From Anaerolineae bacterium (lineage in GTDB: Bacteria > Chloroflexota > Anaerolineae > Epilineales > JAHCIE01): a stretch of 64,000 nucleotides of DNA. The stretch is from contig JAHCIP010000001.1 in assembly GCA_026129165.1 (NCBI GenBank), positions 13,766-77,765 of the forward strand, written 5' to 3'. Position 1 is the first letter of the stretch. Every line of letters begins with the position of its first letter. Under the pieces are notes generated by a model. That model was given only the letters and a program-made list of their open reading frames with translations, was not told the DNA's origin and ran no database searches. This document shows, one piece after another, positions 38 through 63,708 of the stretch. A program made the translations under genes and the position numbers.

Positions 38-1450
38 ATGAAAAGAGTACTCCTTATTCTCGGCGTCATCCTCGTCGCCAGCGCGGGCGTCTTCGCCTAT
101 CAACGCTTGAACACCCCGCCGCCCCCGCCACCTCAGACCGAAGTTGTGACGCAGCCCCGTATCCAGACGGTATCGGTGGAGGCGCGGCTGGCCCCGGCGC
201 GCCAGGCGCGGCTGGCGTTTAACGGCGCGGGGCGTGTCCAGGAGGTGCTGGTCCAGGCCGGCGACACGGTCCAGGCCGGGCAGGTCTTGGTGCGGCTGGA
301 GTCGGCGGCGCTACGGGACGTGGTGCGCCAGGCCGAAGCGGGCGTCCAGGTAGCCCAGGCCCAGCTCCAACGGGCGAAGCTTGGCCCCCGGGCCGAGGAC
401 ATTGCCGTCGCCGAGATGGCCGTGCGCGTGGCCGAGGCGCAGTTGGCGCGGGCGCAGGCCGGGCCGCGAGCGGAGGACATCGGCGTGGCGCAGGCTGGTC
501 TCAACGCGGCGCGGACGGACCTGGCGCGGGCGCGGGTCGGCGCGACAGCCCAGGACCTGGAGACGGCGCGGTTGAGCATCGAGCAGGCCAAGAACCAGTT
601 GTGGAGCGCGCAGGCGCAGCGCGATGCTGTATGCGGGCGCACGGGCGACGCGGAGAAGACACTCCAAAAGCTTGGCATTCCCCAGGCGGAGTGTGACGCG
701 GCGCGGGCGGTCGTGAATTCGAGCGAGCAGGCCGTCCAGATCGCGGAGCAAGCCTACGCGAAACTGGCGGCCGGGCCGAGGGCTGAGGATGTCAACACGG
801 TGGCGGCGCGGGTGGAGCAGGCCCAGGCGCAGGTGCGGGCCGCGCAGGGGGGGCCGCGGCCGGTGGATGTCCAGGTCGCGACGGTCCTGGTCGAGCAGGC
901 CCAGGCGCAGGCGCGGGCCGCGCAGGTCGGGGCGCGGCCGGTGGATGTCCAGGTCGCGACGGTCCTGGTCGAGCAGGCCCAGGCCCAACTGGCCCAGGCC
1001 AAGGCTGGCCCACGAGCGGCGGATGTGGCCGTCGCCGAGGCGGAAGTGGCCCGCGCCGAGGCCGCGCTCCAGGCGGCGCGTACCGCGCTGGCTGAGACCG
1101 AGCTAAAAGCGCCCTTCGCGGGCGTCGTGGCCCAGGTCCTGTTGCAGCCCGGCGAGGCGGCCACGCCGGCCACACCCGCCCTCCAGCTAGGTGACACGCA
1201 CACGCTACGGCTGGAGACGGAAGACCTGGCCGAGACAGACGTGGCGAAAATTGTGGTAGGGCAGACGGCCAGCGTGGCCCTGGATGCCCTGCCCGAGCAG
1301 TCCTTCAAGGCGAAGGTGACACGCATCAGCCCGGTCAGCGCGGAACGGCGCGGCGACACGGTCTACACCGTGTGGCTGGACTTTGACGGCGGTGCGCCGG
1401 AGGGCGCCTTGTGGGGCATGAAGGCGCTGGTTGATATTCAGCTTCACTAG
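38..1450 (+). CDS. HlyD/DevB-family periplasmic adaptor (membrane fusion protein) of a tripartite ABC exporter. N-terminal TM anchor, long coiled-coil hairpin with repeated 'AGPRAEDI' units, C-terminal beta-barrel domain.
   Basis: 470-aa ORF. N-terminal hydrophobic helix (LLILGVILVASAGVFAY). Repeated coiled-coil segments (GPRAEDIAVAEMAVRVAEAQLARAQ...). C-terminal motifs typical of HlyD/MacA adaptors (LKAPFAGVV...V.VGQTASV..DAL). Directly upstream of the FtsX permease and ABC ATPase genes. Confidence 0.8.
   Translation: MKRVLLILGVILVASAGVFAYQRLNTPPPPPPQTEVVTQPRIQTVSVEARLAPARQARLAFNGAGRVQEVLVQAGDTVQAGQVLVRLESAALRDVVRQAEAGVQVAQAQLQRAKLGPRAEDIAVAEMAVRVAEAQLARAQAGPRAEDIGVAQAGLNAARTDLARARVGATAQDLETARLSIEQAKNQLWSAQAQRDAVCGRTGDAEKTLQKLGIPQAECDAARAVVNSSEQAVQIAEQAYAKLAAGPRAEDVNTVAARVEQAQAQVRAAQGGPRPVDVQVATVLVEQAQAQARAAQVGARPVDVQVATVLVEQAQAQLAQAKAGPRAADVAVAEAEVARAEAALQAARTALAETELKAPFAGVVAQVLLQPGEAATPATPALQLGDTHTLRLETEDLAETDVAKIVVGQTASVALDALPEQSFKAKVTRISPVSAERRGDTVYTVWLDFDGGAPEGALWGMKALVDIQLH
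815..970 (+). repeat. Two tandem 78-bp near-identical repeat units (26 aa each) inside the adaptor coiled-coil region
   Basis: Units 815-892 and 893-970 differ at only a few positions. Encoded peptide VEQAQAQVRAAQGGPRPVDVQVATVL / VEQAQAQARAAQVGARPVDVQVATVL. A third partial unit begins at 971. Confidence 0.85.
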
Positions 1451-3710: not shown

Positions 3711-3727
3711 GGGCGGTGGTGGATGAT

Positions 3728-3812
3728 GCGTGATACGTAATGCGTGAAGCGTGAGGCTGAGGGCTGAGGGCTGAAAGCTGATAGCTGATAGCTGACCGCT
3801 AATAGCTCTGAG
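3728..3812 (+). repeat. Degenerate heptanucleotide tandem repeat tract (GGCTGAG / AGCTGAT units) in the 110-bp spacer upstream of the ABC ATPase gene
   Basis: gtgaggctgagggctgagggctgaaagctgatagctgatagctgaccgctaatagctctgagg lies immediately 5' of the RBS (gaggagagagag) and ATG at 3822. Confidence 0.7.
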
Positions 3813-3821
3813 GAGAGAGAG

Positions 3822-6083: not shown

Positions 6084-6091
6084 AGGGCCTC

Positions 6092-6736
6092 CTAACCCAG
6101 CAGCTTGACCAGCCGGTTGCTAGCCGTGTTGGTGACGGCCAGATGGATCAGGTCATCGGCCTCAAAGACAGCGCCGAGGCTGGGCAGAAAGGTATGACCC
6201 CGACGGGTGATGGCGACAACATGAACCTCGCCCGGCAGGGTCAGATCGGCCACCGTGCGGCCCACCAGCGTCGGCGGCGTCTCAGTCTCGACCAGGTCCA
6301 CCTCACCGCTCCCCAGGCTGGCGACCGCGTCCAGGTGCGAGAAGCACAGTAGCTCCGCCATGCGCTGGATGCCCCAGACAGTGGTGGAAACGGTGGGCAG
6401 GCCCAGGCGGCGGTAAATGTCGGCCTTGTGCGGGTCGTAGACGCGGGCCACGACGCGGGGGACGTGAAATATCTGGCGGGCAACTCGCGCCGTGACCACG
6501 TTGACGTCGTCGCTGGCCGTGACAGCCGCCAGCCCGTCGGCGCGGCGGACCCCCGCCGCCTCCAGCGCCTCGCCGTCGAAGCCGATGCCCACGACGGTGC
6601 GCCCCTTGAACGCACTGCCCAGGCGGCTAAAGGCGTCTGGGTCCTTATCCACCACAGTGACCTCGTGGCCGGTCTCTACCAGGCGGCGGGCCAACCCACC
6701 CCCCATGCGGCCACAGCCTACGATGATGAGTCGCAT
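6092..6736 (-). CDS. trkA: TrkA-family potassium-uptake regulatory protein (RCK N + C domains)
   Basis: 214 aa. MRLIIVGCGRMGGGLARRL GxGxxG motif. C-terminal TrkA-C-like segment (VGRTVADLTLPGEVHVVAITRRG). 19-bp overlap with the upstream P-type ATPase stop. Confidence 0.8.
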   Translation of the reverse strand: MRLIIVGCGRMGGGLARRLVETGHEVTVVDKDPDAFSRLGSAFKGRTVVGIGFDGEALEAAGVRRADGLAAVTASDDVNVVTARVARQIFHVPRVVARVYDPHKADIYRRLGLPTVSTTVWGIQRMAELLCFSHLDAVASLGSGEVDLVETETPPTLVGRTVADLTLPGEVHVVAITRRGHTFLPSLGAVFEADDLIHLAVTNTASNRLVKLLG

Positions 6737-34572: not shown

Positions 34573-36459
34573 ATGACAATCGAAGCATATGTGGGACGAG
34601 GAGGTGAGGAGAGCGCCATGTTGAGTACGATGCCGACGGTTTTAACCGAGCGCCAGGGCGAACTGTGGCGCGACGAGCGCCGCCTGCTGGAACGCCTGCT
34701 CAGCCTGCTGAGCCGCTGGGAGACGTCGGCCGACGAACTGGCCGTGCTGCGGCAGGCGCTGGCCCAATTGGACGAGCTGTTCTTACTGGTCATCGCGGGC
34801 GAGTTCAACAGCGGCAAGACCGCCCTCATCAACGCCCTGCTGGGCGAGCGTTACCTCACGGAAGGCGTGACGCCAACTACCGCCGAAATTCACCTGCTCC
34901 GCTACGGCGACAAAGGCCCCGGCCAGCGCGAACGGGGCCTGCTCATCATGACCTACCCCGCGCCCTTCCTGCGCGAGATTAACGTCGTGGACACGCCGGG
35001 GACCAATGCCATCCTGCGTGAACACGAGGAGATTACCCGCGAGTTCGTCCCCCGTAGCGACCTCGTCCTGTTCGTCACCTCGGCCGACCGCCCGTTCACC
35101 GAGAGTGAACGCAACTTCCTGACCGCCATCCGTGACTGGGGCAAAAAGATTGTCATCGTCATCAACAAGATTGACATCTTCGAGACAGCCGAGGAACAGG
35201 CCCAGGTGGTCCAGTTCGTGCGCGACAACGCCCGCGGCCTGCTCGGCATCACCCCCGAGGTCTTTCCGCTGTCGGCCCGCCTGGCCCTCCGCGCCAAGGC
35301 CGGGGCGGATGGGGCCGATCTGACGGCTAATCCCTGGTGGCAGGCGAGCCAATTCGAACCCTTCGAACGCTATATCCATGAGACGCTCAACGAGCAGAGC
35401 CGCATCCGCCTCAAGCTGCTGAACCCACTCGGCGTCGGCCTCAAGCTGGTCGGCGACGTGCGCGGCACGATGGAGGAGCGCCGTGTCTTGCTGAGCGATG
35501 ACCTCAAGACGATTGAAGTGGTCGAGCGCCAACTGGTCACGTACCGCGAGGATATGCAGGCCGAGTTCGAGCGCCGCTTCGACCGGGTGGACAACACCAT
35601 CCTGGAGATGCGGGTGCGCGGCGAGGAGTTCTTTGACGAACGGCTCCGCCTGCGCCGCGCCTTCGACCTGCTCAACTCGGGCCGCCTGGCCGAGGACTTT
35701 GAACGCATCGTCGTGGCCGATACCCCCCAGGTCGTCGAGAACCAGGTGCAAGCCATGATTGACTGGATGGTGGAGCGTGAGATGCGGGAGTGGCGAGTCA
35801 TTGCCCGCGAATTGAGCCGCCGCCAGAAGACGGAGTTTCTGGGCAGCGCGGCCAGCGAGGCGGCGGGCGGCTTCGAGTACAACCGCCGCGAGTTGCTGGA
35901 TAGTGTCGGGAAAACGGCTGTCCAGGTGGTATCGCGCTACGACCGTCAGGTGGAGAGCCAGGCCCTGGTCGAAGGGGTGCAGGATGCACTCGCCGGGACC
36001 GCCCTGGTCGGCGTAGGGGCGGTTAGCCTCGGCATCATCCTGCATGCCCTGCTTGCCAGCGCCATGGCCGACGCCACGGGCATCCTGGCGGCCAGTGTCA
36101 TCGGCGCCTTAGGGCTGGCGATCCTGCCCTACAAGAAGGGCCAGGCCAAGGCCGACCTGCGCGCCAAGACGGAAGAACTACGCACGGTCCTGCGCGAGTC
36201 GTTGGGCAAGGAATTCGAGAGCCAGTTGGATCGCTCGGTCGAACGGCTCATGGAGGCCCTCGGCCCCTATAGCCGCTTCATCCGCAGCGAACACGAACGG
36301 CTGGTAAGCGTCCAGGCAGAACTGGACGACGTGGGCCAGGGGCTGCGCGACGTGCGCGACCAGATTGACCGCGTCCTGCCCGAGCGGGCGCCCGCGAACG
36401 CGGCGACTCCAACTGGCGTTCTCCAACTTCCCTCTCCCTTTGGAAGAGGATCGGGATGA
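34573..36459 (+). CDS. Bacterial dynamin-like GTPase (BDLP/DynA/LeoA family)
   Basis: 628 aa (start may be M16 at 34618). G1 GEFNSGKTALINALLG, G2/G3 DTPGTN, G4 INKID. Long helical stalk. Hydrophobic paddle near the C-terminus (GTALVGVGAVSLGIILHALLASAMA...ILP). Confidence 0.8.
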   Translation: MTIEAYVGRGGEESAMLSTMPTVLTERQGELWRDERRLLERLLSLLSRWETSADELAVLRQALAQLDELFLLVIAGEFNSGKTALINALLGERYLTEGVTPTTAEIHLLRYGDKGPGQRERGLLIMTYPAPFLREINVVDTPGTNAILREHEEITREFVPRSDLVLFVTSADRPFTESERNFLTAIRDWGKKIVIVINKIDIFETAEEQAQVVQFVRDNARGLLGITPEVFPLSARLALRAKAGADGADLTANPWWQASQFEPFERYIHETLNEQSRIRLKLLNPLGVGLKLVGDVRGTMEERRVLLSDDLKTIEVVERQLVTYREDMQAEFERRFDRVDNTILEMRVRGEEFFDERLRLRRAFDLLNSGRLAEDFERIVVADTPQVVENQVQAMIDWMVEREMREWRVIARELSRRQKTEFLGSAASEAAGGFEYNRRELLDSVGKTAVQVVSRYDRQVESQALVEGVQDALAGTALVGVGAVSLGIILHALLASAMADATGILAASVIGALGLAILPYKKGQAKADLRAKTEELRTVLRESLGKEFESQLDRSVERLMEALGPYSRFIRSEHERLVSVQAELDDVGQGLRDVRDQIDRVLPERAPANAATPTGVLQLPSPFGRGSG

Positions 36460-36604
36460 GGGTCTCACATCGTTGGTGAGCTTTCTAAGACCCTCACCCC
36501 AACCCTCTGCCAGAGGGGAAGGGGCACGTTAAGCGGCATGTAGAAAAGCGCCATAGCGAGAAGGAACCGATTACATCCCAGGGCGGGGGCCAGGAGAACA
36601 CTGT

Positions 36605-39127: not shown

Positions 39128-40189
39128 ATGCTGCCCGTATTTGACGGCCACAACGACACCCTGCTCAACCTGTACCTGACCCAGCGCGGCGGGGGCCGCA
39201 GCTTCTTCGAGGCCAGCGACCGAGGCCACATTGACCTGCCCCGCGCCCGCGAGGGCGGCTTCGGCGGCGGCTTCTTCGCCTGCTTCACGCCGAACCCTCG
39301 TATGGCCGACATTACCGCCGATGAGGGTCTGATCAAGACCGCCACGGGTTTCGAGTTCCCGCTCGCCGCCCCCATTGACCTGGCCTACGCCCAGCGTACG
39401 ACGTTTGGCCTGGCGGCGCTGCTCTTCCGGCTGGAAGCCCAGTCCGACGGCCAACTCAAGGTGGTGCGGACGGCGGACGAACTGGAAGGGTGTCTGACGA
39501 ATGGTGTCGTGGCCGCCATCTTTCATATCGAGGGCGCGGACGCCATTGACACGGACCTGGACACCCTGGAGGTGCTCTACCAGGCCGGGCTGCGCTCGCT
39601 GGGCATCGTCTGGAGCCGGCCCACCGCCTTCGGCCACGGCGTCCCCTTCCGCTTCCCGTCGTCGCCCGACACCGGCCCCGGCCTGACCGATGCCGGCAAG
39701 GAACTCGTCCGCGCCTGCAATCGCCTGGGTATCATGGTGGACCTATCGCACCTCAACGAGCAGGGCTTCTGGGATGTCGCCGCCCTATCCGACGCGCCCC
39801 TGGTCGCCACCCACTCCAACGCCCACGCCCTGTGTCCCGTGACGCGCAACCTGACCGACAAGCAGCTTGACGCCATCCGCGACTCCGACGGTATGGTGGG
39901 CCTCAACTTCGCCGTGGGCTTCCTACGCGAGGACGGCCTCAACAACGCCGACACGCCGCTGGAGACTATGGTGCGCCACATTGACTACCTGGTGGAGCGC
40001 GTCGGCCTGGACCGCGTTGGCTTCGGCTCCGACTTCGACGGCGCCAGAGTGCCAGCCGACATCAAGGACGTGACGGGTCTACCGAAGCTGCTTGACGCCC
40101 TCCGCGCCGCCGGCTACGACGAGCCGAGCCTGCGCAAGTTGGCCTACGAGAACTGGCTGCGCGTCCTCCGCAAGACCTGGCGAGGGTGA
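39128..40189 (+). CDS. Membrane dipeptidase (peptidase M19, renal-dipeptidase family)
   Basis: MLPVFDGHNDTLL N-terminal motif. HIEGADAID, VDLSHLNEQGFWDV, THSNAHALCP, GFGSDFDG, all typical of M19 dipeptidases. Confidence 0.85.
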   Translation: MLPVFDGHNDTLLNLYLTQRGGGRSFFEASDRGHIDLPRAREGGFGGGFFACFTPNPRMADITADEGLIKTATGFEFPLAAPIDLAYAQRTTFGLAALLFRLEAQSDGQLKVVRTADELEGCLTNGVVAAIFHIEGADAIDTDLDTLEVLYQAGLRSLGIVWSRPTAFGHGVPFRFPSSPDTGPGLTDAGKELVRACNRLGIMVDLSHLNEQGFWDVAALSDAPLVATHSNAHALCPVTRNLTDKQLDAIRDSDGMVGLNFAVGFLREDGLNNADTPLETMVRHIDYLVERVGLDRVGFGSDFDGARVPADIKDVTGLPKLLDALRAAGYDEPSLRKLAYENWLRVLRKTWRG

Positions 40190-40440
40190 ACCTAACCCCC
40201 CGGCCCCCTTTCCTGCTAGGGAAGGGGGAGCAGCCCGGAGTTAACTCCCCTCCCTTTTTAGGGGAGGGGTTGGGGGAGGGGTTCAGCGCGGCCATACCTA
40301 ACCCTCCGACCCCCTTCCCTGGCAAGGAAGGGGGGCAGACCGTTCCGACCCCCCTCCCTTCGTAGGGGAGGGGTTGGGGGAGGGGTCCATCTCCACTCCA
40401 ATCAAGTAAGGCTACCCAAACGATGGGTAGCCTCAGCCGA
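40190..40440. repeat. Two tandem copies of a ~105-bp composite palindromic element, each with a C5TTYCC..GGAAGGGGG hairpin and a CCCCTCCC..GGGGAGGGG hairpin ending in GGGGAGGGGTTGGGGGAGGGG (G-quadruplex-capable)
   Basis: Unit 1 about 40191-40283, unit 2 about 40301-40388. Located between convergent gene ends (dipeptidase stop 40189; small minus-strand gene stop about 40560). Confidence 0.8.
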
Positions 40441-40559
40441 ATCTATTCAGTTTGAGAGCTGATTCCTGAGTACTGACGACCGACGACTGCTCCCCGGGCG
40501 GGCCTTCATCACCGTACACGACAGCGGGCATTTGGCGCATGGTCTTACCCGCCTGGGAC

Positions 40560-40872
40560 TTACCGACGCGCGTTGGTGATTGGCGCGTAGCGCGACCCAT
40601 CCGCTTCGACCGACAACTGGTACTTCCACGCACTGTACCGCTCCTGGGGACTGGGAACCGCGCGGTTCCCACTGCGCCCAACCGTGGCAGAGTACTGGTC
40701 GTGCTGGCGCGCCTTGAAGTCCAGGAAGCGGTCCCGGGCCGCCTGGTACGCGGCGCTCGGCTGCCAGGTATACGTTGGCCCATCCGCCTGGGCCGGCGAC
40801 GTCAATGCTGAGTGGTAGATAAGGGCCACGAGCGCGAACAGGATGGCGAAGAGGGTAGTCTTAGTCTTCATG
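40560..40872 (-). CDS. Small secreted hypothetical protein
   Basis: Starts MKTKTTLFAILFALVALIYHSALTSPAQA (signal peptide) at ATG 40872. The longer ORF-track start would read through a repeat element. Confidence 0.4.
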
Positions 40873-41065
40873 GTCAGGTCCTTTCTGGTGGTTGGTCCTT
40901 TGTCCTCGGTCTTCCGTCTTCCGCCTGCCCCCCGCAATGGGGGGGCCTCCGTCCTCTAGCGTGGCCCCATTGAACCACACCAACGCGCCAAAGTCCTACC
41001 CCTTTTGAGGAGAAAAAGGGGTATAATTGGGGGTATAAAGTTGTCCCAGGGGGTAGACCTGCCAG

Positions 41066-44065
41066 ATGTCTGATCTATCCTTCGGTCAGTGGCTCAAGCG
41101 GCGGCGGGCCGGGCTGGGGCTGACCCAGGCCGAACTGGCTGACGCGGTCGGCTACAGCCGCGAAATGATTCGCAAGCTCGAAGTGGACAGGCTGCGGCCC
41201 TCGAAGGCGCTAGCCGTGCGGCTGGCCGCAGTCCTCCAGCTCCCGCCCGAAGACCACGCCGCGTTTATCCGCTTCGCCCGCGACGAGGGCAGCGACCCGC
41301 CGCCTCCCCTGCCCACGCAGACCACCAGCGTCCCCCCACCCTCCACACTCGACGCTTCACGCTCCACCTCTGCTCCCCTCCCCCACAACCTGCCCATTCC
41401 TCCCACCCCCCTCGTCGGGCGCGAGGCAGAGACGCGACAGGTCGCCTCTCTCCTCCACCGTCCCGACGTGCGTCTCGTCACCCTCACCGGCCCCGGCGGC
41501 AGCGGCAAAACGCGCCTGGCGCTAGAAGTGGCGCATACGCTGACGAAAGACCGAGGACGGAAGACGGAAGACGAAGGGCGAAATACGAAATACGCATTAC
41601 GCACTACGGACGGCGTCTTCTTCGTCAACCTCGCGCCTATCACTGACCCCAGCCTGGTGATAGCGACGATAGCACAGGCGTTGGACGTGCGGGAGAGCGG
41701 GGGGCGTCCCCTACTGGAGAGCGTGAAGGACTACCTACGCGAGAAGGAGATGCTACTGCTGCTGGACAACTTCGAGCAGGTGGTCGAAGCGGCTCCTATC
41801 GTGGCCGACCTGCTGGCCTACGCGCCGGGTCTCAAATGTCTCGTTACCAGCCGTATCCCGCTGCACCTGCGCGGCGAGAAGGAGTTCCTCGTTGAACCGC
41901 TCCCGCTGCCAAGCCGGGATAGCCGACCGCTGACGGTAGACGGCCGCCAAGAAACGGATTACGCGGCGCGCATCACGCAATATGCCGCCGTTGCCCTGTT
42001 CATCCAGCGGGCGCAGGATGTGAAAGCCGACTTCCAGGTGACGAACGAGAACGCCCCCGCCGTGGCTGAAATCTGCCATCGGCTCGACGGCTTGCCCCTC
42101 GCCATTGAATTGGCGGCGGCGCGGGCGCGCGTCCTCACGCCGGAAGCCATGCTCCCCCGGCTCCAGCGCCGGCTGGCATTCCTGACCAGCGGCCCCGCCG
42201 ACTTACCGGCCCGTCAGCAGACGCTCCGCGCCACCATTGACTGGAGCTTTAGTCTGTTGACAGCAGGCGAGCAGGCTCTCTTTACCCGGCTGGCCGTCTT
42301 CCACGGCGGGTTCACCCTGGAAGCGGCCGAAGCGCTGTGCGGCGACGACGACGGAGGACGAAGGACGGAGGAAGAGAACTCTCGTCCGTCGTCCGTCCTC
42401 CATCTTCCGTCAGTCCTGGACGGTGTCGAATCGTTGGTCGCCCAGAGCCTGGTGCGGCGTGCCCTGCGTGGCAGCGCCGAGGCAGAAGCAGCCTCGCTGC
42501 CGTTCACCATGCTCGAAACGATCCGCGAGTATGCCCTGGACCGCTTTGCGGCCAGCCCAGAGGCTGGCATGGTCCGACAGAGACACGCCCAGTATTACCT
42601 TGGTCTGGTGGAGGAGGCGGAGCCTCAACTGATGGGGGCTGGGCTGACGGCCTGGTTGGGGCGGCTGGGCGCGGAGTGGGAGAATATCCGGGCGGCGGTG
42701 GGTTGGCTGCGAGACAGCGCCCAGCCAGAGGCCCTGCTCAGGCTCGTTGGCGCGTTACGCCGCTTCTGTGAACTTCAGGGACGCTCCAGCGAGGCGTTGG
42801 CCTGGCTGGAGGAGGGTTTGAACCAGGGCGGGGAGGTCGCGGCGGCGGTGCGGGCCAAGGCTCTCCATGTGGCGTCAAATCTGGCGCAGAACATGGGCGA
42901 CCTGGACGGCGCGGTGCGGTTGGGCGAGGCGAGTCTGGCCCTCCGCCGCGAGTTGGGCGACCAGCAGGGCATGGCGCGGACGCTCAACAACCTGGCTGTG
43001 ACGGCCTGGTCGCAGGGCAATTTCAGCCAGGCCCGCGAGTTACACGCGGCCAGCCTCGCCATCAAACGCGCGCTCAACGACCGGCTGGGCATGGCCTATT
43101 CCCTCAACAACCTGGGCCTGATTGCCACCGACCAGGACGACTACCCCACCGCGCGGGCCTTGCTAGAGGAGAGCCTGACCCTGCGGCGAGAATTGGGCGA
43201 CCAGCACGGCGTCGCCGTCTCCCTTCTCAACCTGGGCAATGTGGCCCGCCAGCAGGGTCAATTGGGGGAAGCCCGCGCCCTCTACGAGCAGAGCCTGGCG
43301 CAGTTACGCCGCCTGGGAGATCGGGCCAATGAGGCGCGGGTGCAGAGCGTGCTGGGTCTCACCCTGGCCGAGCAGGGTGACTACGCCGCCGCCTTCGCCC
43401 ATTTGCAGGCCAGTCTGGACCTGCGGCGGACGCTCGGCAATAAACGCGACATCACCGTGTCGCTTAACAATCTGGGGCAGGCCGCGCTCTATCAAGGCGA
43501 TGTGGCCTGGGCGCGGCTGGTGTTTGAGGACGCCCTGGGCCTGGCCCGCGAGGGCGGCGCGAAGATGGGGCAGGCCAACGCGCTGGTCGGGCTGGGCCAG
43601 GTGGCCCTGGCTGAGGGGCGGTGGGAAGACAGCCGGCGCTATCTGCTGGCGGGGCTGGACCTACAGCGCGAGCTGGGGGATCAGGGAGGGGTAGCGACAA
43701 CGCTGCTCGCCCTGGCGAAGCTCAATGCCCACGCTGGCGACATGGGGAACGCTCTTGCTAGGGCGCGCGAGAGCCTGGGCGAGTTGCACCGGCTGGGCCT
43801 TCAACTATTCCTGGCCGATGCCCTTGAAACCTTAGTCGGGCTGCTTGGGCGTGGCGATCCCGATGGGGCAACCCGCCTGGGCGGGGCAGCCGCCGCCTTG
43901 CGGGCGAGACTGGGGATTCCGCTGCCGCGAGGCGCACAAGGGGAGTGGGCGCGACGGCTGGACGAACTGAGGGGAGCGCTGGGGGGGAATCGTTTCGAGG
44001 CCCTGTACCAGACGGGCCACACGCTACCCCTCACTGAAGCCGTCGCGGAGGCGCTGGCGGATTGA
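41066..44065 (+). CDS. STAND-type regulator: N-terminal XRE-family HTH, NB-ARC/AAA ATPase module, C-terminal TPR array. Carries two in-frame insertions derived from a palindromic repeat family.
   Basis: 999 aa. HTH LGLTQAELADAVGYSREMIRKLE. Walker A LTGPGGSGKTRLA, Walker B LLLLDNFEQV, GLPLAIELAAA (NB-ARC GxP-like). About 12 TPR units (...LNNLA...YSLNNLG...LLNLG...). Low-complexity inserts TKDRGRKTEDEGRNTKYALRTTDG and DDDGGRRTEEENSRPSSVLHLPSVLDG. Confidence 0.8.
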   Translation: MSDLSFGQWLKRRRAGLGLTQAELADAVGYSREMIRKLEVDRLRPSKALAVRLAAVLQLPPEDHAAFIRFARDEGSDPPPPLPTQTTSVPPPSTLDASRSTSAPLPHNLPIPPTPLVGREAETRQVASLLHRPDVRLVTLTGPGGSGKTRLALEVAHTLTKDRGRKTEDEGRNTKYALRTTDGVFFVNLAPITDPSLVIATIAQALDVRESGGRPLLESVKDYLREKEMLLLLDNFEQVVEAAPIVADLLAYAPGLKCLVTSRIPLHLRGEKEFLVEPLPLPSRDSRPLTVDGRQETDYAARITQYAAVALFIQRAQDVKADFQVTNENAPAVAEICHRLDGLPLAIELAAARARVLTPEAMLPRLQRRLAFLTSGPADLPARQQTLRATIDWSFSLLTAGEQALFTRLAVFHGGFTLEAAEALCGDDDGGRRTEEENSRPSSVLHLPSVLDGVESLVAQSLVRRALRGSAEAEAASLPFTMLETIREYALDRFAASPEAGMVRQRHAQYYLGLVEEAEPQLMGAGLTAWLGRLGAEWENIRAAVGWLRDSAQPEALLRLVGALRRFCELQGRSSEALAWLEEGLNQGGEVAAAVRAKALHVASNLAQNMGDLDGAVRLGEASLALRRELGDQQGMARTLNNLAVTAWSQGNFSQARELHAASLAIKRALNDRLGMAYSLNNLGLIATDQDDYPTARALLEESLTLRRELGDQHGVAVSLLNLGNVARQQGQLGEARALYEQSLAQLRRLGDRANEARVQSVLGLTLAEQGDYAAAFAHLQASLDLRRTLGNKRDITVSLNNLGQAALYQGDVAWARLVFEDALGLAREGGAKMGQANALVGLGQVALAEGRWEDSRRYLLAGLDLQRELGDQGGVATTLLALAKLNAHAGDMGNALARARESLGELHRLGLQLFLADALETLVGLLGRGDPDGATRLGGAAAALRARLGIPLPRGAQGEWARRLDELRGALGGNRFEALYQTGHTLPLTEAVAEALAD

Positions 44066-47547: not shown

Positions 47548-47614
47548 GACCAAGGACGAAAGACCAAAGACCAACAAGGAGATATATTGGTCGTTGGTCC
47601 TTCGTCCTTGGTCC
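47548..47614. repeat. Imperfect ~26-bp inverted repeat hairpin of the GGACGAA(A/G)GACC family filling the glcD-stop to PRTase-start spacer
   Basis: gaccaaggacgaaagaccaaagaccaacaagg-agatatat-tggtcgttggtccttcgtccttggtcc. Related copies at 40876-40924, 41542-41613 and 42344-42423. Confidence 0.8.
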
Positions 47615-49063
47615 CTACAAGGTGTGGTCCTCCGCCACGACCTGGGGCAAGCGGCGGTGCTTCTTGCCGACTTCGTAGCATGCCTTCGAGGTCGGGAACA
47701 TCTTGCCGGGGTTGCACAGTCCAGCCGGGTTGAACGCCGCGCGCACCTGGACCATCGCCCGCAGATCCGCCCCGTCGAACTGGTCGCACATATCCTCGCG
47801 CTTCTCGACGCCGATGCCGTGCTCGCCGCTGATGGAACCGCCCGCCTCGATGCACACCCGCAGGATATCGGTTCCGCACTTCACAACCGCCCGCACCTGG
47901 GCCGGGTCACGCTCGTCGAACAGAATCAGCGGGTGGAGGTTGCCGTCGCCGGCGTGGAAGACGTTGGCGATGCGGAAGCCGTACTGCCGGCTGATCTCGT
48001 TGACGCGGTGGAGTACCCACGGCAGCTTGGTGCGCGGGATGACGCCGTCCTGGACGTAGTACGACGGCGACAGGCGGCCCATCGCGCCGAACGCGCCCTT
48101 GCGCCCCGCCCACAGCTTGTCGCGCTCGGCGGTGGTCTTGGCCTCGCGCACCTCGCGCGCCCCCTGAGCGCGGCATAGCTCGGCCACGTGGTCGGCCAAT
48201 CCTTGCAGGCCGTCGGTAAACCCTTCCAGGTCAATCAGCAGCACCGCCGCCGCGTCTGTGGGGTAGCCACACTTCTTGGCCGCCTCGACGGCGCGGATGG
48301 CGGTGTTGTCCATCATCTCCAACGCGGCGGGGATCGTCCCGTCGGCGATGATGGCCGACACAGCATTGCTGGCGTTGTCCACGGCGTCGAACACAGCCAG
48401 CAGTGTCTTGACCGCTTCGGGCTGGTGGACCAGGCGCACCAGAACCTCGGTGACGAGACCCAGCGTCCCCTCCGAGCCGACCATTAAGCCGGTCAGATCG
48501 TAGCCGGGCGCGTCGGCGGTGGGCAGCCCCAGCCTCACGACCTCGCTGTCTGGCAGCACCGCCTCCAGCATATGCGTGTGATTAGACGTGACGCCGTAGG
48601 CCAGGCAGTGCGGGCCGCCCGAGTTCTCGGCCACGTTGCCGCCAATAGTGCACGCCCGCTGGCTGGACGGGTCCGGCACGTAGTAGAAGCCCTGACCCGC
48701 GACAGCCGTAGTGACATCTATGTTGACCACGCCTGGCTGGACCGTCGCCCGCAGGTTGGGCAGGTCAATGTCGAGGATGCGCCTCATGCGGGCGAAGGAG
48801 ACGACGATGCCGCCCTGGACCGGCACGGCCCCGCCAGAGAGGCCCGTCCCCGCGCCGCGCGGCATGAAGGGCAGGCTGTGCTCGTTGGCGAGGCGCACCA
48901 CCGCCGCCACCTCCGCCGTCGTCTCTGGAAAGACGACAAAGTCGGGTTGCGCCTTGTCCAGCGCGCCATCGTACTCGTAGAGCGCGACGTCCTGGGGGCG
49001 GTGCAGCACCTTGTCCTGGCCGAGGAGCGTCTCTAACTGGCGGAGAATCGTCGTCTTATCCAT
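47615..49063 (-). CDS. FAD-linked oxidase, GlcD-like (glycolate oxidase / D-lactate dehydrogenase family)
   Basis: 482 aa. FAD_binding_4 (VVFPETTAEVAAVVRLANEHSLPFMPRGAGTGLSGGAVP) plus C-terminal FAD-oxidase_C domain. Confidence 0.8.
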   Translation of the reverse strand: MDKTTILRQLETLLGQDKVLHRPQDVALYEYDGALDKAQPDFVVFPETTAEVAAVVRLANEHSLPFMPRGAGTGLSGGAVPVQGGIVVSFARMRRILDIDLPNLRATVQPGVVNIDVTTAVAGQGFYYVPDPSSQRACTIGGNVAENSGGPHCLAYGVTSNHTHMLEAVLPDSEVVRLGLPTADAPGYDLTGLMVGSEGTLGLVTEVLVRLVHQPEAVKTLLAVFDAVDNASNAVSAIIADGTIPAALEMMDNTAIRAVEAAKKCGYPTDAAAVLLIDLEGFTDGLQGLADHVAELCRAQGAREVREAKTTAERDKLWAGRKGAFGAMGRLSPSYYVQDGVIPRTKLPWVLHRVNEISRQYGFRIANVFHAGDGNLHPLILFDERDPAQVRAVVKCGTDILRVCIEAGGSISGEHGIGVEKREDMCDQFDGADLRAMVQVRAAFNPAGLCNPGKMFPTSKACYEVGKKHRRLPQVVAEDHTL

Positions 49064-49072
49064 CGTCGCTCC

Positions 49073-51616
49073 CTATGCCCACTTCACCAACGTCGTCGCA
49101 AAGCGATGCGCCAGGCCGGGGTGCTTGGGCAGGACGCGCACGTTAAAGGCGAGGCTGCCACTGGCGCGGGCAAGAATCTGGCCCTGGTAGGTAGACACGC
49201 CGTTCTGGCTGCTGACAAAGCTCAGCGGCGTGCTGGCGATGTCGGCAGGCTTGCCGTTACGCACATTCCAGCTCACCGCTTCGACCTGGACATCGTCGGG
49301 CGAGAGGACGCCCAGCCAGATCTGGGCCGTCAGCGGGATGGACGCGCCGACAGCCAGCTGGCCTTCGCGCGGGGCATCCACCGCCAAGCCCACCTGCGGC
49401 CAGGCAGCGCGCACATGATCGAGCCAGGCGGCCAGCTTCTTGGCGGGCGCGCAGTCGTCGGCGTTGAGTTGGGCGCCAATGGCGTCGGCAGGCAGGTAGA
49501 GCTTCTCGACATACTCCTTGAGCATCCGCCGGGCGCTGAAGCGCCAGGCCAGCGTCTTAATCGCATTCTTCATGACGCGCACCCACGCCTTCGGCACGCC
49601 ATTGTCACGGGTGTAGTAAGCGGGAATCAAGTCGTGTTCCAGGGTGTCGTAGAGCGAGACAGCATCAGCCTCGTTCTGGGTCTCCTCGTTGGCGTAGGCG
49701 CGGCCCTCGCCGATGGCCCAGCCGTTCTCACTGTTGTAGCCCTCCGGCCACCAACCATCGAGGACGCTCCAGTTGGGCACGCCGTTGAGCGATGCCTTCT
49801 GGCCGCTGGTGCCGCTCGCCTCACGCGGGCGGGCCGGGTTGTTGAGCCACACATCCACCCCCTCGTTGAGGAAGCGGGCCGTCTCCATATCGTAGTCTTC
49901 GATGAAGACCACCTTGCCCGCGAACTCCGGCGTGCGGGAAAGCTGGTAAATCTGGCGGATGAGGGCCTTACCCGGCTCGTCGGCGGGATGAGCCTTGCCG
50001 GCGAAGACGAACTGCACCGGGCGGCCAGCCTGCGTGATGAGGTTATAGAAGCGCGGCAGGTCGCGCATAAAGAGCGTGGCCCGCTTGTAGGTGGCGAAGC
50101 GGCGGGCAAAGCCGATGGTCAGCGCGTTGGGGTCCAGGACGCGCTCGGCCTCGGCCAGCGCACGCGGTCCCTCGCCCAGCCGTTCACGGTGTTTGACCGT
50201 CTCTTGACGCGCATAGTCCACTAGGCGGCGCTTCAACTGGCAGTGAACGTCCCACAGCTTCTCATCGGGGACCTGGTCTATCTTTGCCCACAACTTGGGG
50301 TCGTCCAGGTGGGCGTACCAATCCTGGCCAAGATATTCCTTGTACAGTTCGTCCATCATCTGAGCCAGCCAGGTCGCGGTGTGGACGCCATTGGTAATCG
50401 AGGTGATAGGAACCTCGGCGGCGGGGAGGCCCGGCCAGAGGTCAGCCCACATGGCGCGCGACACTTCGCCGTGGAGCGCGCTTACCCCGTTGTCGAAGGA
50501 CGACAGGCGCAGCGCCAGGACCGTCATGCTGAATGTCGGCCCCCAGGGCTGATCCAGCCTCGCCAGTGATAGAAACTCCTCGCGCTCTACGCCGAGTAGC
50601 GGCCAGTAGTCGCGGAAGAAGGTGTCCATCAGGTCCAGGCTAAACGCCTCGTTGCCAGCGGCGACGGGTGTGTGGGTCGTAAACACGGTGTTAGCGGCCA
50701 CGGCCTGCCGCGCCTCCTCAAAGGCCAGCCCTTCGCCCTGGACCAGTTCACGGATGCGCTCCAGGCTGAGGAAGGCCGAGTGGCCCTCATTCATGTGCCA
50801 CACCGTAGGATGGATGCCTAAGGCACGCAGAATGCGTACTCCGCCGATGCCCAGCACGATTTCCTGGGCGATACGGAGGGCGTGGTCGCTGACGTAGAGC
50901 TTGCCGCCGAGATCGCGGTCGCTCGGCTGGTTCTTCTCCACGTCGGTATCCATCAGGTACAGCGGGATGCGGCCCACCTGGAACTTCCAGACCTTGGCAT
51001 AGACACGGCGACCGGGCAGGTCCACATAGACTTCGACCTCGCGGCCGTCGGGCGTCGTGGCGGGGGTCGCCGGCACTTCCGAGAAGCGGATCTTCTCGTA
51101 GAAAGCCTCCTGAACGCCCTCAGCCGTGATATGTTGGACAAAATAGCCCTGCGGGTAGAGGAAACCGACGCCCACCAGCGGCAGGCCCAGGTCGCTGGCC
51201 TCCTTACAGTGGTCGCCCGCCAGGACGCCCAGACCGCCGGAATAGATGGGCAGCGACTCGTGCAGGCCAAACTCTGGCGAGAAGTAGGCGATGACGGTGT
51301 TGGTCTTGTCGGGGTGGGCTTGCTTGAACCAGGTATGGTCGGCCGCCATGTAGTCGTCCAGGTCGGCCAGGACCGCGTCGTAACGCGCCAGGTAGGCCGG
51401 GTCCGTGGCGGCCCGTTCCAGGGGGCCGGACTGGACACGGCTCAGGAAGCGGACAGGGTCATGGCCTACCTCTTCCCATAGCTGAGGGTCCAGGTCAATA
51501 TACAATTGTTGTGCGGCGGGACACCATGTCCACCATAAATTGTAAGCCAGTGAATGCAGGCGGTTGAGCCGCTCTGGAATCACGGGAAAAACCGAAAATC
51601 GGCCATAGGACTGCAT
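49073..51616 (-). CDS. glgP: Alpha-glucan phosphorylase (GT35, GlgP-like with DUF3417 N-terminus)
   Basis: 847 aa. ...AYFSPEFGLHESLPIYSGGLGVLAGDHCK..., PLP-Lys region (GTSGQKASLNGVPNWSVLDGWW). Confidence 0.85.
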   Translation of the reverse strand: MQSYGRFSVFPVIPERLNRLHSLAYNLWWTWCPAAQQLYIDLDPQLWEEVGHDPVRFLSRVQSGPLERAATDPAYLARYDAVLADLDDYMAADHTWFKQAHPDKTNTVIAYFSPEFGLHESLPIYSGGLGVLAGDHCKEASDLGLPLVGVGFLYPQGYFVQHITAEGVQEAFYEKIRFSEVPATPATTPDGREVEVYVDLPGRRVYAKVWKFQVGRIPLYLMDTDVEKNQPSDRDLGGKLYVSDHALRIAQEIVLGIGGVRILRALGIHPTVWHMNEGHSAFLSLERIRELVQGEGLAFEEARQAVAANTVFTTHTPVAAGNEAFSLDLMDTFFRDYWPLLGVEREEFLSLARLDQPWGPTFSMTVLALRLSSFDNGVSALHGEVSRAMWADLWPGLPAAEVPITSITNGVHTATWLAQMMDELYKEYLGQDWYAHLDDPKLWAKIDQVPDEKLWDVHCQLKRRLVDYARQETVKHRERLGEGPRALAEAERVLDPNALTIGFARRFATYKRATLFMRDLPRFYNLITQAGRPVQFVFAGKAHPADEPGKALIRQIYQLSRTPEFAGKVVFIEDYDMETARFLNEGVDVWLNNPARPREASGTSGQKASLNGVPNWSVLDGWWPEGYNSENGWAIGEGRAYANEETQNEADAVSLYDTLEHDLIPAYYTRDNGVPKAWVRVMKNAIKTLAWRFSARRMLKEYVEKLYLPADAIGAQLNADDCAPAKKLAAWLDHVRAAWPQVGLAVDAPREGQLAVGASIPLTAQIWLGVLSPDDVQVEAVSWNVRNGKPADIASTPLSFVSSQNGVSTYQGQILARASGSLAFNVRVLPKHPGLAHRFATTLVKWA

Positions 51617-51779: not shown

Positions 51780-51885
51780 GATGGGGTGCATATACTATAG
51801 TCAGTACTAGTCAGTAGCCAGTCGTCAGTAGACACTAGCCAGTCGTCGGTAGTCGGTAGCCAGTCGTCGGTGAATAGTAGAAGGA
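51780..51885 (+). repeat. Tandem short repeats (TAGTCAGTA and AGCCAGTCGTCGGT units) in the 5' leader of the aldo/keto reductase gene
   Basis: tagtcagtactagtcagtagccagtcgtcagtagacactagccagtcgtcggtagtcggtagccagtcgtcggtg, 10-110 bp upstream of start 51891. Confidence 0.7.
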
Positions 51886-52913: not shown

Positions 52914-54263
52914 ATGGGCTACAATGCCAGCCTCACGCCAAAACAGGAGCCGCCTGTGACCTCAACCGCTATTGTCGCTCAGGCCGAAGCCCAGATTCGC
53001 GCCCACACCATTCCTGGTCTTGACGGCCTGGACAACGACGCGATTTTCCCCAACTACGGTGGACTGTCCATTGCCAACATCGCGCCTACCTTCGCCTCGC
53101 TGTTGGGCATCGAGGCGGGCGGCACGCCTCTCTGGGACCCCCTCTGGGAGCCGTATCGCGGTCGGGTGGACCGAGTCGTCTTTATCATCCTCGACGCGCT
53201 GGGCTACCTCCAACTGCGCGAGGCATTGGACGCCGATCCAGGGGCTAACTTCCACCGCATAGCGCAGGCTGGCCTCCTCGTCCCCCTCACCTCTGTCTTT
53301 CCTTCGACCACCACCGCCGCCACGACTACCTTCGCCACAGGCCGCGCGCCCCTGGAACATGGCCTGCTGGGCTACGAGTTGTTCCTGCGCGAGTTCTCGC
53401 GCGCGGCGAACATGATTCTCCTCAGCGGGCGCGGGGCCAGGCGGTCGGGCGAACTGGTGGACCTGGGGCTGAAGTACGACACCTTTGTGCCGGTCCCCAG
53501 CGTGGCGCAGCGCCTGGCTGTCGAAGGGATCCCCACGTTTGTCATGCTGCCCTACAATATCCTGGACAGCGGCCTGTCCAAACTCCAGTATCGTGGTGGC
53601 AAGATGGTCCCCTATCTCAGTTCGGCGGATATGTGGGTGGGCGTGCGCCACCTGCTCACCGCGCGGCCGGGCCCCGCGCTGATCTCGGTCTACTGGCCGG
53701 GCGTGGACAGCGCCGCCCACCACTACGGTCCCGACACGGAGATGACCAAGGCCGAGATTCGCAACCTGGCCTACTCACTGGGCCGCGAGCTACTCGACGG
53801 CCTGCCCGCCAGCGCCCGGCGGCGGACCCTACTCGTCATCAGCGCCGATCACGGCCAGATGCGCTCGCAGCCCCAGGACGCCATGGAGTTGGCGCATCAC
53901 CCCGACCTGGCCCGACGTCTGCTGTTCGCGCCGACGGGCGAGGCGCGCACGGCCTATCTGTACGCGCGTCAGGGCGAGAAGGCGGCCGTGCTGGACTATC
54001 TGCGTCAGACGCTAGGGCAGCAGTTCGCCGCCTGGGACAGCGACGCGGCCTATGCCAGCGGGCTGTTTGGCCCAGCCGCTAGCGCGGCCCCCGAAGCCCG
54101 CTCCCGCCTGGGTGACGTGGTCCTCGTGGCCCGCCAGACGTATTCCCTCCAGGTCGAGGGCGTGCACAAGCCGCCGGCTGAGATGCCCGGCCGCCACGGC
54201 GCGCTCAGCCCGGCCGAGATGCTCGTGCCCTGGCTGGCGGCGCATCTAGAGGATGTGGCATAA
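52914..54263 (+). CDS. Alkaline-phosphatase-superfamily protein (type I phosphodiesterase / nucleotide pyrophosphatase-like)
   Basis: 449 aa. FIILDALGY (metal-site Asp), FPSTT (nucleophile Thr/Ser region), LLVISADHGQ (DHG metal-binding) in AP-superfamily order. Confidence 0.5.
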   Translation: MGYNASLTPKQEPPVTSTAIVAQAEAQIRAHTIPGLDGLDNDAIFPNYGGLSIANIAPTFASLLGIEAGGTPLWDPLWEPYRGRVDRVVFIILDALGYLQLREALDADPGANFHRIAQAGLLVPLTSVFPSTTTAATTTFATGRAPLEHGLLGYELFLREFSRAANMILLSGRGARRSGELVDLGLKYDTFVPVPSVAQRLAVEGIPTFVMLPYNILDSGLSKLQYRGGKMVPYLSSADMWVGVRHLLTARPGPALISVYWPGVDSAAHHYGPDTEMTKAEIRNLAYSLGRELLDGLPASARRRTLLVISADHGQMRSQPQDAMELAHHPDLARRLLFAPTGEARTAYLYARQGEKAAVLDYLRQTLGQQFAAWDSDAAYASGLFGPAASAAPEARSRLGDVVLVARQTYSLQVEGVHKPPAEMPGRHGALSPAEMLVPWLAAHLEDVA

Positions 54264-54287
54264 GGAATAGGGATTAAGGATAAGGGA

Positions 54288-54743
54288 GTGGGGATGCAGG
54301 AGTCAGGTTTGCAGGTCACAGGCGCACCGAGACCGCGCACGGCGCAACTGCGCGTGCGGCGCATCGGTTACCTCGCGCTGGCGAAGTTCGGCTGCCTGCT
54401 GGGCGGGCTGGCGATGATCCTGCCGGGCCTGGTGTGCGGCTTGGTGAGCGTGAACCTGGTCCACGTGGTGCGGGCCTGGCTCGAAAGCTGGCAGCAATTC
54501 AGCCTGATCCTGCTAGGCCAGAACCTCGGCTCGCTCGACCTGATTAACGCCCTGCGCCTGACCGCCGTGCTGGAGCGGCTGCGCCTGCTGGACCAGACGA
54601 GTCCCGTGGCGCTGCTGAGCATTACGGTGGCTGTCTCGCTCCTCGGCGGACTGCTGCTGGCGCTCGTCGTGTGCCTGGTCGGCCTGGGCTACAATGTCCT
54701 GGCCTGGTTGACGGGCGGTCTCACGCTCGAGGTAGAGGAATGA
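54288..54743 (+). CDS. Small polytopic membrane protein, unknown function
   Basis: 151 aa, 3-4 hydrophobic helices. RBS-like GGGAGTGGGG upstream. Confidence 0.35.
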   Translation: MGMQESGLQVTGAPRPRTAQLRVRRIGYLALAKFGCLLGGLAMILPGLVCGLVSVNLVHVVRAWLESWQQFSLILLGQNLGSLDLINALRLTAVLERLRLLDQTSPVALLSITVAVSLLGGLLLALVVCLVGLGYNVLAWLTGGLTLEVEE

Positions 54744-59260: not shown

Positions 59261-59400
59261 CAACAGCGGGAACAGCCGAGGCCGGCTGGCGTGATTGTCA
59301 TGCCGAACCAAGTGAGGCATCTACTCTGGCAGGCTTTCTCAGAGCAGGCGCCTCACTATGTTCGGCATGACGGAGAGACGAGTATTTTCGCTAGGCTATT

Positions 59401-62205: not shown

Positions 62206-62344
62206 AAAACCTCTTCATACAACCAACCGTAGGGGCAGGCCCCTGTGCCTGCCCTGGGGGAACGCTGAAGCGGGCAACCACCGCCCAGGTAGGGCAACCA
62301 CGGGGGGTTGCCCCTACACGTCTCCGTGCCTGCCCTGGGAGGCG

Positions 62345-63562: not shown

Positions 63563-63585
63563 TCCAAACCTCCTGACGACGGACC

Positions 63586-63617
63586 ACTGACTACTGACTA
63601 CTGACTACTGACTACTG
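63586..63617 (-). repeat. Heptanucleotide tandem repeat (CTGACTA)x4.5 on plus strand = TAGTCAG in sense of the downstream minus-strand antiporter gene, in its 5' leader
   Basis: actgactactgactactgactactgactactga, 24-55 bp upstream of the antiporter start (63562). Confidence 0.8.
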
Positions 63618-63708
63618 AAATAGCGGAAGCCCCTGGCAGCAGACTACGCATGGACCAGGGGCTTCGCGGGCCGCATATTCAGTTGATGGAACTAACCAAC
63701 GCTCGGCG

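Follow-up and report, generated by a model that had tools for sequence, protein, structure and literature searches.

How stretches of DNA that resemble the repeats lying between the genes of a genome come to be translated inside one of its proteins is the question raised by a STAND gene located in a 64-kb stretch of contig JAHCIP010000001.1 from an Anaerolineae bacterium; this whole stretch, to which all array statistics for the source genome refer, is hereafter called the window. The preliminary description of the locus had interpreted two segments of this gene as palindromic elements, similar to MITEs (miniature transposable elements with inverted repeats) or repetitive extragenic palindromic (REP) sequences, exonised in a regulator gene or else accumulating in a gene that is decaying. 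As judged from the sequence and from a structural model, both segments are instead degenerate heptanucleotide tandem arrays, read in frame as predicted disordered surface loops. They probably belong to the 7-nt repeat class that this genome carries in its intergenic DNA, translated here in tolerant loops and turning over in place.

Repeat DNA was detected at both segments by Tandem Repeats Finder (TRF), by a register display and by an inverted-repeat search; the location given previously was therefore right, although the limits drawn lay 1–2 nt off the codon boundaries. TRF returned period-7 arrays at 41542-41573 and 41579-41594 for the first segment (site 1), and at 42350-42372 and 42382-42416 for the second (site 2). 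In register, site 1 (41542-41611) is made up of the successive units GACGAAA, GACCGAG, GACGGAA (twice), GACGAAG, GGCGAAA, TACGAAA, TACGCAT, TACGCAC and TACGGAC. It is read as TKDRGRKTEDEGRNTKYALRTTDG and forms the loop between the helix that follows the P-loop and strand beta2, with 26 residues against a family baseline of 9 (+17 codons). Site 2 consists of a (GGACGRA)n arm (42347-42372), a loop and a reverse-complement arm (42382-42411); over 42347-42372 and 42382-42407, as delimited by the inverted-repeat search, the arms are 81% complementary; it is read as GDDDGGRRTEEENSRPSSVLHLPS and represents 15 codons over the family baseline. Site 1 does lie just after the P-loop, as had been proposed, whereas site 2 is located within the winged-helix subdomain of the NB-ARC module and not between the NB-ARC and TPR domains. 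Likewise, a length divisible by three holds for the 24 translated codons, but not for the 80 nt over which the second segment had been drawn. In an AlphaFold2 model of residues 101–600, computed from 84 aligned sequences (mean predicted local distance difference test, pLDDT, of 89), both inserts are predicted as coil (site 1, model residues 59–82, pLDDT 65–68; site 2, model residues 326–349, pLDDT 56–65), in line, together with the intact frame, with their earlier reading as charged low-complexity loops.

The 7-nt periodicity itself had previously gone unnoticed, as had a third array, located in the linker that joins the HTH to the nucleotide-binding domain (NBD), and a probable, decayed fourth one (site 3; Table 1). 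The linker array was found by TRF (41336-41367, period 7, 4.6 copies) as well as by a period scan, and adds approximately 8 residues in comparison with homologs (columns 101–120 of the family alignment, A1). At site 3, where the signal is weak (autocorrelation of 0.38 at lag 7 against 0.19–0.33 at other lags), the segment leading from the sensor-I strand to the first ARC helix reads ...LTVDGRQETDYAARITQY; it exceeds the baseline by 10 residues and has a pLDDT of about 80 in the model. Predicted peptide stretches encoded by the inserts include GRRTEEENSRPSSV and RNTKYALR. The three clear genic arrays are free of stop codons in all three sense frames. Within the arrays of the window, no more than two identical units are ever adjacent, and the long perfect tract of a phase-variable locus is absent here; slippage should therefore be rare in arrays as degenerate as these.

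Table 1. Host gene and heptanucleotide arrays of the window.
Feature	Position	Strand	Description
Host STAND gene	41066..44065	+	999-aa open reading frame (ORF), HTH_3 / P-loop NB-ARC / TPR
Linker array	41329..41368	+	In-frame CCACNCT-type heptamer units between HTH and NBD
Site 1	41542..41613	+	About 10 degenerate heptamer units [G/T]ACGNAN in a single register; TRF, register display
Site 3	~41916..41968	+	Probable decayed heptamer array, GACSGNN then NACGSNN units; weak signal
Site 2	42344..42415	+	Hairpin-forming heptamer array in inverted arrangement; inverted repeats I7 and I9, TRF
Intergenic GACNRRR array	40885..40925	-	GGAAGAC, GGAAGAC, CGAGGAC, AAAGGAC; 5' leader of small signal-peptide gene
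Intercistronic hairpin	47548..47613	-	(GACCAAG/GACGAAA)n plus reverse complement, GACNRRR family
Heptamer array, other units	3711..3813	+	TGATGCG grading to GAGGCTG, then GATAGCT; directly upstream of Shine-Dalgarno (SD) sequence and ATG at 3822
(TAGTCAG)-type array	51804..51872	+	Directly upstream of SD and start of aldo-keto reductase gene
(CTGACTA)6.6 on + strand	63567..63628	-	Equals (TAGTCAG)n in 5' leader of - strand gene starting at 63562
Short array, CTGANNN units	40452..40489		Overlaps 3' ends of - strand ORFs 40433..40783 and 40447..40629
Short intergenic array, AAGGRAT units	54251..54295		TRF, period scan, register display

With regard to the host gene, Pfam assigns to the encoded protein an HTH_3 domain at the N terminus, TPRs at the C terminus and a P-loop region with AAA_16, AAA_22 and NB-ARC matches, and an identical protein, labelled TPR protein, is recorded at NCBI from an Anaerolineae metagenome-assembled genome (MAG). 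Across alignment A1, the Walker A (GPGGSGKT) and Walker B (LLLLDNFEQ) motifs do not vary, nor does LDGLPLAIELAAAR, the GLPLAIE motif of ARC, and Foldseek searches of the PDB matched the model to plant NLR resistosomes, Apaf-1, CED-4 and the STAND-TPR protein 6mfv. The protein hence presents the NB-ARC fold, the Walker A and B motifs and the GLPLAIE motif expected of a STAND NB-ARC NTPase. PADLOC and NCBIfam searches returned no specific family for the NBD, and no defence-system assignment was made. In comparison with the syntenic ortholog at locus L001 (ENA ERZ28614660), the ratio of non-synonymous to synonymous substitution rates (dN/dS) was 0.29 over the whole gene, with values of 0.23 in the NBD, 0.16 in the TPR region and 0.70 in the 27 codons of the site-2 insert that could be aligned. 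Because of these low ratios (0.16–0.29), the intact motifs and the confident model, the gene is under purifying selection, apparently functional and not decaying, contrary to what had been suggested as an alternative. That it might be a decaying pseudogene gathering junk repeats, or that the inserts might be assembly artefacts, is hardly credible: the inserts are of low complexity, the gene is mosaic and the exact protein comes from a single MAG contig only, but the frame of 999 codons is unbroken, with conserved catalytic motifs and a confidently predicted fold, and equivalent arrays are present in independent assemblies from ENA, NCBI, JGI and Logan. This explanation is already largely refuted.

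The relationship between the genic arrays and the intergenic DNA was examined across the window. A lag-autocorrelation scan returned 10–11 arrays with a period of 7 and 0–1 at each of periods 4, 5, 8, 10, 11 and 13, so that 7 was the sole enriched period among those that are not multiples of 3; the shuffled window sequence gave 0.12 period-7 arrays. The claim that the genic segments form one family with intergenic elements near 40876-40924 and 47548-47614 was borne out by the 14-mer GGAAGACGGAAGAC, present exactly at 40909-40922 (-) and 41559-41572 (+), and by three consecutive GACNRRR units, for which there were 13 matches against 0.04 expected, 12 of them in site 1, site 2, 40885-40925 and 47548-47613. 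Unit-by-unit sequence gradients were visible within arrays in the register display. Seven of the 11 arrays were counted as intergenic, including that at 40452-40489, which overlaps small minus-strand ORFs and follows the stop codon (40560) of the signal-peptide ORF at a distance of about 70 nt; four arrays are directly upstream of an SD sequence or start codon. Five of the seven intergenic arrays carry stops in most frames. Those of the GACNRRR type are stop-free in all six frames, among them the array next to the ATG (40872, minus strand) of the signal-peptide gene, and they are therefore translatable in any frame. The GACNRRR hairpin at 47548-47613, flanked by the stop codon (47615) of an FAD-oxidase gene and by the start of the following minus-strand gene, corresponds to inverted repeat I4, with 27-nt arms that are 93% complementary and a predicted RNA fold of -50.4 kcal/mol (z -10). 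An Rfam search gave no hit above the gathering score, only sub-threshold matches to generic hairpins (miRNA models). The arrays at 3711-3813, 51804-51872 and 63567-63628 were observed to stop a few bases before the SD sequence and start codon of the next gene, and the two (TAGTCAG)n arrays among them have an equal orientation relative to their genes.

In a sample of 119 homologs, where an expansion was defined as at least 6 residues over the baseline loop length, three loops with tight baselines of 9, 15 and 16 residues (sites 1, 3 and 2, respectively) were expanded in 19, 37 and 40 members. Each insert peptide was given a score for every one of the 1,608 heptamer necklaces without stop codons, and segments drawn at random from the same proteins served as controls; 8 inserts at site 1, 12 at site 3 and 19 at site 2 scored higher than the controls' 99th percentile and so decoded as translated heptamer arrays. 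Many different units lie behind these inserts, such as RNTKYEI from (AAATACG)n, KTEDGRR from (AAGACGG)n, TDYGLRT from (ACGGACT)n, NSQFSIL from (AATTCTC)n and KAEGRRQ from (AAGGCAG)n, and the peptides vary with the unit (GRRTED.., AEGRRQK.., RIEDRGW.., IENEELR..). Arrays at these loop sites were confirmed at the DNA level in loci L001, L002, L004, L083 and L084; in L002, a single gene harbours three arrays, with six perfect ACGGACT units at site 3.

Site 1 of four homologs (P0017, P0025, P0028 and P0040) holds PPLPSQRERGAGGEG-type peptides instead, which presumably come from CCCTC/GGGAG hairpin repeats such as those at 36430-36523 and 40182-40386 of the window; if so, these loops accept any small repeat of the genome. 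A second hairpin-repeat family, rich in CCCCTCCC/GGGGAGGGG, was indeed observed at these two positions and at 62229-62317, one member being a 104-nt unit in 1.9 copies just downstream of the gene that ends at 40189. The otherwise near-identical proteins P0094 and P0044 are distinguished at site 3 by two additional copies of the unit GRGGAGDAGGLTQYEA (16 aa, 48 nt), so that this loop takes non-heptamer tandem duplications too. Furthermore, at locus L001, an RlmI-like S-adenosylmethionine-dependent methyltransferase gene (5878-7200, -) carries an in-frame GACNRRR hairpin array (6550-6653), read as STEDQRPKTEDQEPSVTHHPPPTVLRLPSSVHRL between the PUA and methyltransferase domains; exonisation is therefore not confined to STAND genes.

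The comparison of orthologous and closely related copies shows that arrays are gained, lost and resized quickly. A hairpin array sits exactly at site 2 in all four syntenic orthologs, and both of its arms change together (GGACGGA/TCCGTCC in the window and L001, GGCAGAA/TTCTGCC in L083 and L084); its length is 72, 90, 93 and 93 nt, and the number and order of units also differ among copies. Two proteins that are 92.7% identical (P0027 and P0047) differ by a single indel in their whole length, of 7 aa (21 nt, three units), which falls in the array, while members of their subfamily at 80–86% identity have either a bare 16-aa loop or a different unit. Orthologous intergenic arrays have kept their position and changed in unit order and length: the position of 47548-47613 is occupied by an array in L001 and L083 too, with different unit content, and the array at 51804-51872 is longer than its counterpart in L001. 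Regarding the lineage-specificity of the inserts, which the preliminary description had proposed to settle with orthologs, the outcome is mixed: site 2 is common to the four, with repeat and hairpin kept at the DNA level, whereas the nearest orthologs lack site 1, which does not date it. The alignment with L001 shows a 51-nt gap at site 1 with no direct repeat evident, the N-terminal modules compared being non-orthologous and hence not a true empty site. The argument that site 1 is lineage-specific because P0002–P0004 lack it was considered and dropped: since the N-terminal 340 residues are not orthologous, this absence does not show a recent insertion.

This limitation results from the mosaic structure of the gene. 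In comparison with L001, its DNA identity rises from about 0.55 (up to nt 42050) to about 0.88 (nt 42095 onward), and the switch falls on the conserved GLPLAIELAAAR motif (CHRLDGLPLAIELAAAR). Residues 341–999 are 84–95% identical to P0002; residues 1–340 are closest to other paralogs (P0018, 72%, for the HTH; P0100, 70%, for the NBD). The left-flank synteny of L001, L083 and L084 (CARDB, Fer4/CCG and TehB genes) is absent from the window. On sequence grounds, the gene would be either a recombinant between STAND paralogs or a MAG assembly chimera. In the three orthologous loci, repeats of about 11 nt (GCGGGAAAAAA/GCGGTAA..) were also observed directly upstream of the STAND start codon (L001 9950-10000, L083 3850-3915, L084 2820-2875); the differing upstream region of the window lacks them.

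The co-varying arms of site 2 raise the possibility that selection maintains intragenic arrays for a role in themselves, as expression-tuning hairpins, as heptamers bound by a factor, or as a contingency switch in which a gained or lost unit would shift the frame and silence the STAND protein. The site-2 hairpin is kept in four orthologs despite a change of unit on both arms, the intergenic arrays lie directly upstream of SD sequences and start codons, like the TAACTGA repeats proposed to bind a regulator (PMC4679880), and perfect tracts exist in some paralogs, as in L002. However, slippage is expected to be rare in the window, where arrays hold at most two perfect units; the predicted RNA fold of site 2 (-41.5 kcal/mol) is only modestly better than that of shuffled sequences (z -2.5); the insert evolves almost neutrally; close relatives free of arrays exist; and template switching would give complementary arms at birth anyway. 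We regard such selection as rather improbable.

Beyond the STAND family, the density of period-7 arrays falls from 156/Mb in the window to 38.6/Mb across 51 Chloroflexota loci and to 5.5/Mb across 33 loci from other phyla, with 30 period-7 arrays in the Chloroflexota loci against 0–4 at other periods. A scan of contigs for relatives, used for taxonomic spread, gave at least 600 matches; among the matches listed, relatives were at most 46% identical. Specific units are shared over wide distances. The composite motif AAATACGAAATACGCAYTACGC was found in site 1 of the window, in an intergenic hairpin of L001 and in ten metagenome contigs; nine of these ten carry arrays, often as hairpins, and in two contigs the array is directly upstream of an SD sequence and ATG. 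The L001 hairpin (17290-17425, about 130 nt, AATACGA/ACTACGC/ATCACGC), which separates the FAD-oxidase and glycogen phosphorylase genes, consists of units that are those of site 1.

The in-place turnover that we favour would operate as follows. Three 7-nt units (21 nt) yield a peptide with a periodicity of 7 residues that uses all three frames of the unit, and an inverted pair of arrays yields first a peptide from the purine arm (D/E/G/R/K/T) and then one from the pyrimidine arm (P/S/L/V). Within genes, only arrays with stop-free sense frames and a total length that is a multiple of 3 survive, and they persist only in the HTH–NBD linker and in a few permissive NB-ARC loops (after the post-P-loop helix, before ARC1 and in the winged helix), as disordered, nearly neutral loops of a protein otherwise under purifying selection. 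Arrays may arise and turn over in place via replication slippage, inverted ones from intrastrand template switching, and may spread to the equivalent loop of paralogs through gene conversion, with no transposase-driven insertion of a defined element. Turnover in place is suggested by the three-unit indel between P0027 and P0047, the bare-loop relatives, the changed orthologous intergenic arrays and the unit gradients, and exchange between paralogs by the identity jump at 42050-42095 and by the N-terminal 340 residues being nearest to other paralogs. Seeding of the arrays by conserved codons nearby (GAC GGC GTC and CTG GAC GGT, on the right of sites 1 and 2, respectively, and ACG CAG TAC GAG at site 3) was plausible by eye and was rejected, as it fails to explain identical units in intergenic DNA.

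Several observations weigh against turnover in place. The hairpin complementarity maintained in four orthologs through a change of unit could reflect selection for the hairpin as such; a chimeric MAG assembly could account for the mosaic; and slippage, template switching and gene conversion are deduced indirectly, from the sequences. In addition, opposite the 130-nt hairpin array of L001 there is only a 10-nt spacer in the window (49063-49073), which looks like an insertion or a deletion. The main point that local slippage leaves unexplained, however, is the sharing of specific units, which recur, even in composite orders, at unrelated places; a vocabulary shared in this way is not to be expected from purely local slippage, and this counts against it.

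An alternative is that the arrays, the hairpin ones especially, are small REPIN- or MITE-like mobile elements copied to new sites by a dedicated enzyme, the STAND loops being merely tolerant. A conserved heptamer vocabulary and a composite motif in unrelated loci and organisms, a hairpin architecture in many copies, the presence or absence of the 130-nt array between orthologous spacers and the GACNRRR hairpin array exonised in the unrelated methyltransferase gene all agree with mobility. Nevertheless, neither fixed termini, a constant length nor a target-site duplication was seen in the copies compared; orthologous copies differ in unit order; the near-identical proteins P0027 and P0047 are set apart by three units; arrays grade from one unit into another; and no candidate transposase came up, with no search aimed at one. 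Furthermore, the inverted arms are themselves arrays and not the terminal inverted repeats with fixed ends of a MITE. This variability in unit content and length speaks against the MITE/REP-like units originally proposed, and we consider mobile elements unlikely.

A different source of the shared vocabulary would be a sequence-specific factor, either an array-generating enzyme or an RNA- or DNA-binding regulator, that maintains units such as AATACGA/ACTACGC and GACGGAA across Chloroflexota, the STAND arrays being used as hairpin modules or frameshift switches. This idea is speculative and we give it little credence; if the arrays did act as switches, NLR-like sensors would be toggled individually, and environmental bacteria would possess a repeat-driven, variable repertoire of STAND receptors.

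Two further repeats of the window were noted. An ORF at 38..1450 (+) contains, at 811-1026, a coding tandem repeat of 78 nt (26 aa; 2.2–2.8 copies, 83–94% identity) with the repeat peptide VEQAQAQ.RAAQ.G.RPVDVQVATVL, and an isolated inverted repeat (59297-59371; 32-nt arms, 84% complementary, 11-nt loop) lies between convergent ORFs ending at 59260 and 59401 and is probably a terminator-like hairpin.

Taken as in-frame heptamer arrays, the inserts show a route by which non-triplet simple sequence repeats (SSRs) enter proteins, a 7-nt unit read across three frames giving disordered loops in a conserved ATPase domain, and this recruitment is repeated at three fixed positions across a large family. 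They also provide a system for asking what generates such arrays, with fast-turnover orthologous loci, co-varying hairpin arms and units shared between distant genomes. For annotators, they account for odd charged or proline/serine-rich segments in Chloroflexota proteins (GRRKTED, RNTKYEI, LPSSVL, RIEDRGW, PSSILD).

Heptanucleotides are described in PMC4679880 and PMC4692102, which summarise Mrazek et al. 2007, as the over-represented class of long SSRs in many bacteria, mostly intergenic and known from large GC-rich genomes, and those of cyanobacteria (short tandemly repeated repetitive sequences, STRRs) and of Xanthomonas and Nostoc (GGGNATC) are reported there as under-represented in coding regions. 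The likeness to the arrays studied here comprises head-to-tail 7-nt units, an over-represented period 7, tandemly inverted copies, a mostly intergenic location often tens of nt from start codons, and a length and sequence that vary between close relatives; the differences are the Chloroflexota host, the units (GACNRRR, AATACGM, TAGTCAG and others) and the location of translated arrays within a conserved domain. The window thus contains tandem 7-nt units in at least three copies, a period-7 excess and arrays that are mainly intergenic and near gene starts, as in STRRs. The consensus units of cyanobacterial STRRs are CCCCAGT, TTGGTCA and CAACAGT; they are not matched in the window, where only TTGGTCC/TTGGTCG (47587-47613) resembles TTGGTCA, so that the arrays are the same kind of repeat and not members of the cyanobacterial families.

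The TAACTGA repeats of marine Beggiatoaceae are similar in that they lie just upstream of start codons and that stop codons in the unit limit their placement (PMC4679880), and the ACTGA core is shared with the window unit CTACTGA. Inside Beggiatoaceae ORFs, reverse TAACTGA repeats encode repeats of the 7-residue peptide LSVISYQ, mostly at protein termini or in hypothetical proteins (PMC4679880), in contrast to the internal, recurrent loops of one large family, often with inverted (hairpin) pairs, found here. The palindromic elements of Rickettsia (RPEs) are discrete, of about 150 bp and in defined families with a conserved peptide each, and occur in frame in functional genes (PMC10969869). The STAND inserts resemble them as palindromic repeat DNA placed in frame at a tolerant position of a functional ORF, with an added peptide that fits the fold, but they consist of 7-nt units in arrays whose sequence, length and ends are not fixed, and are not discrete elements of about 100–150 bp with a conserved peptide, since their peptides differ with the unit. 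The preliminary description was therefore correct in calling this an unusual bacterial case, albeit not an unprecedented one, in view of RPEs and of reverse TAACTGA repeats in ORFs (PMC10969869, PMC4679880). Borg tandem repeats, whose units are divisible by three, create disordered protein regions in ORFs (PMC9879509); they likewise evolve fast, generate new disordered segments and are found at similar places in homologs (PMC9879509), whereas with the 7-nt unit the gain or loss of a single unit would shift the frame, which is kept by the total length only. REPINs are extragenic and associated with a RAYT transposase, and each family has its own conserved sequence (PMC3116915); short hairpin-forming repeats, intergenic abundance and inverted pairs are common to both (PMC3116915), but no conserved full-length sequence was seen among the arrays.

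A literature search, covering few subscription journals, found heptamer arrays described neither for Chloroflexota nor for NB-ARC genes. The arrays are in-frame heptanucleotide repeats comparable to the STRRs of cyanobacteria and to the TAACTGA repeats of Beggiatoaceae. They are distinct from classical MITE or REP elements, and they extend to Chloroflexota a repeat biology that is known, although unexplained, in cyanobacteria, Xanthomonas and Beggiatoaceae. They differ from these known cases in the phylum and the units, in their position internal to a conserved domain, in their frequent inverted form and in their recurrence at three fixed loops.

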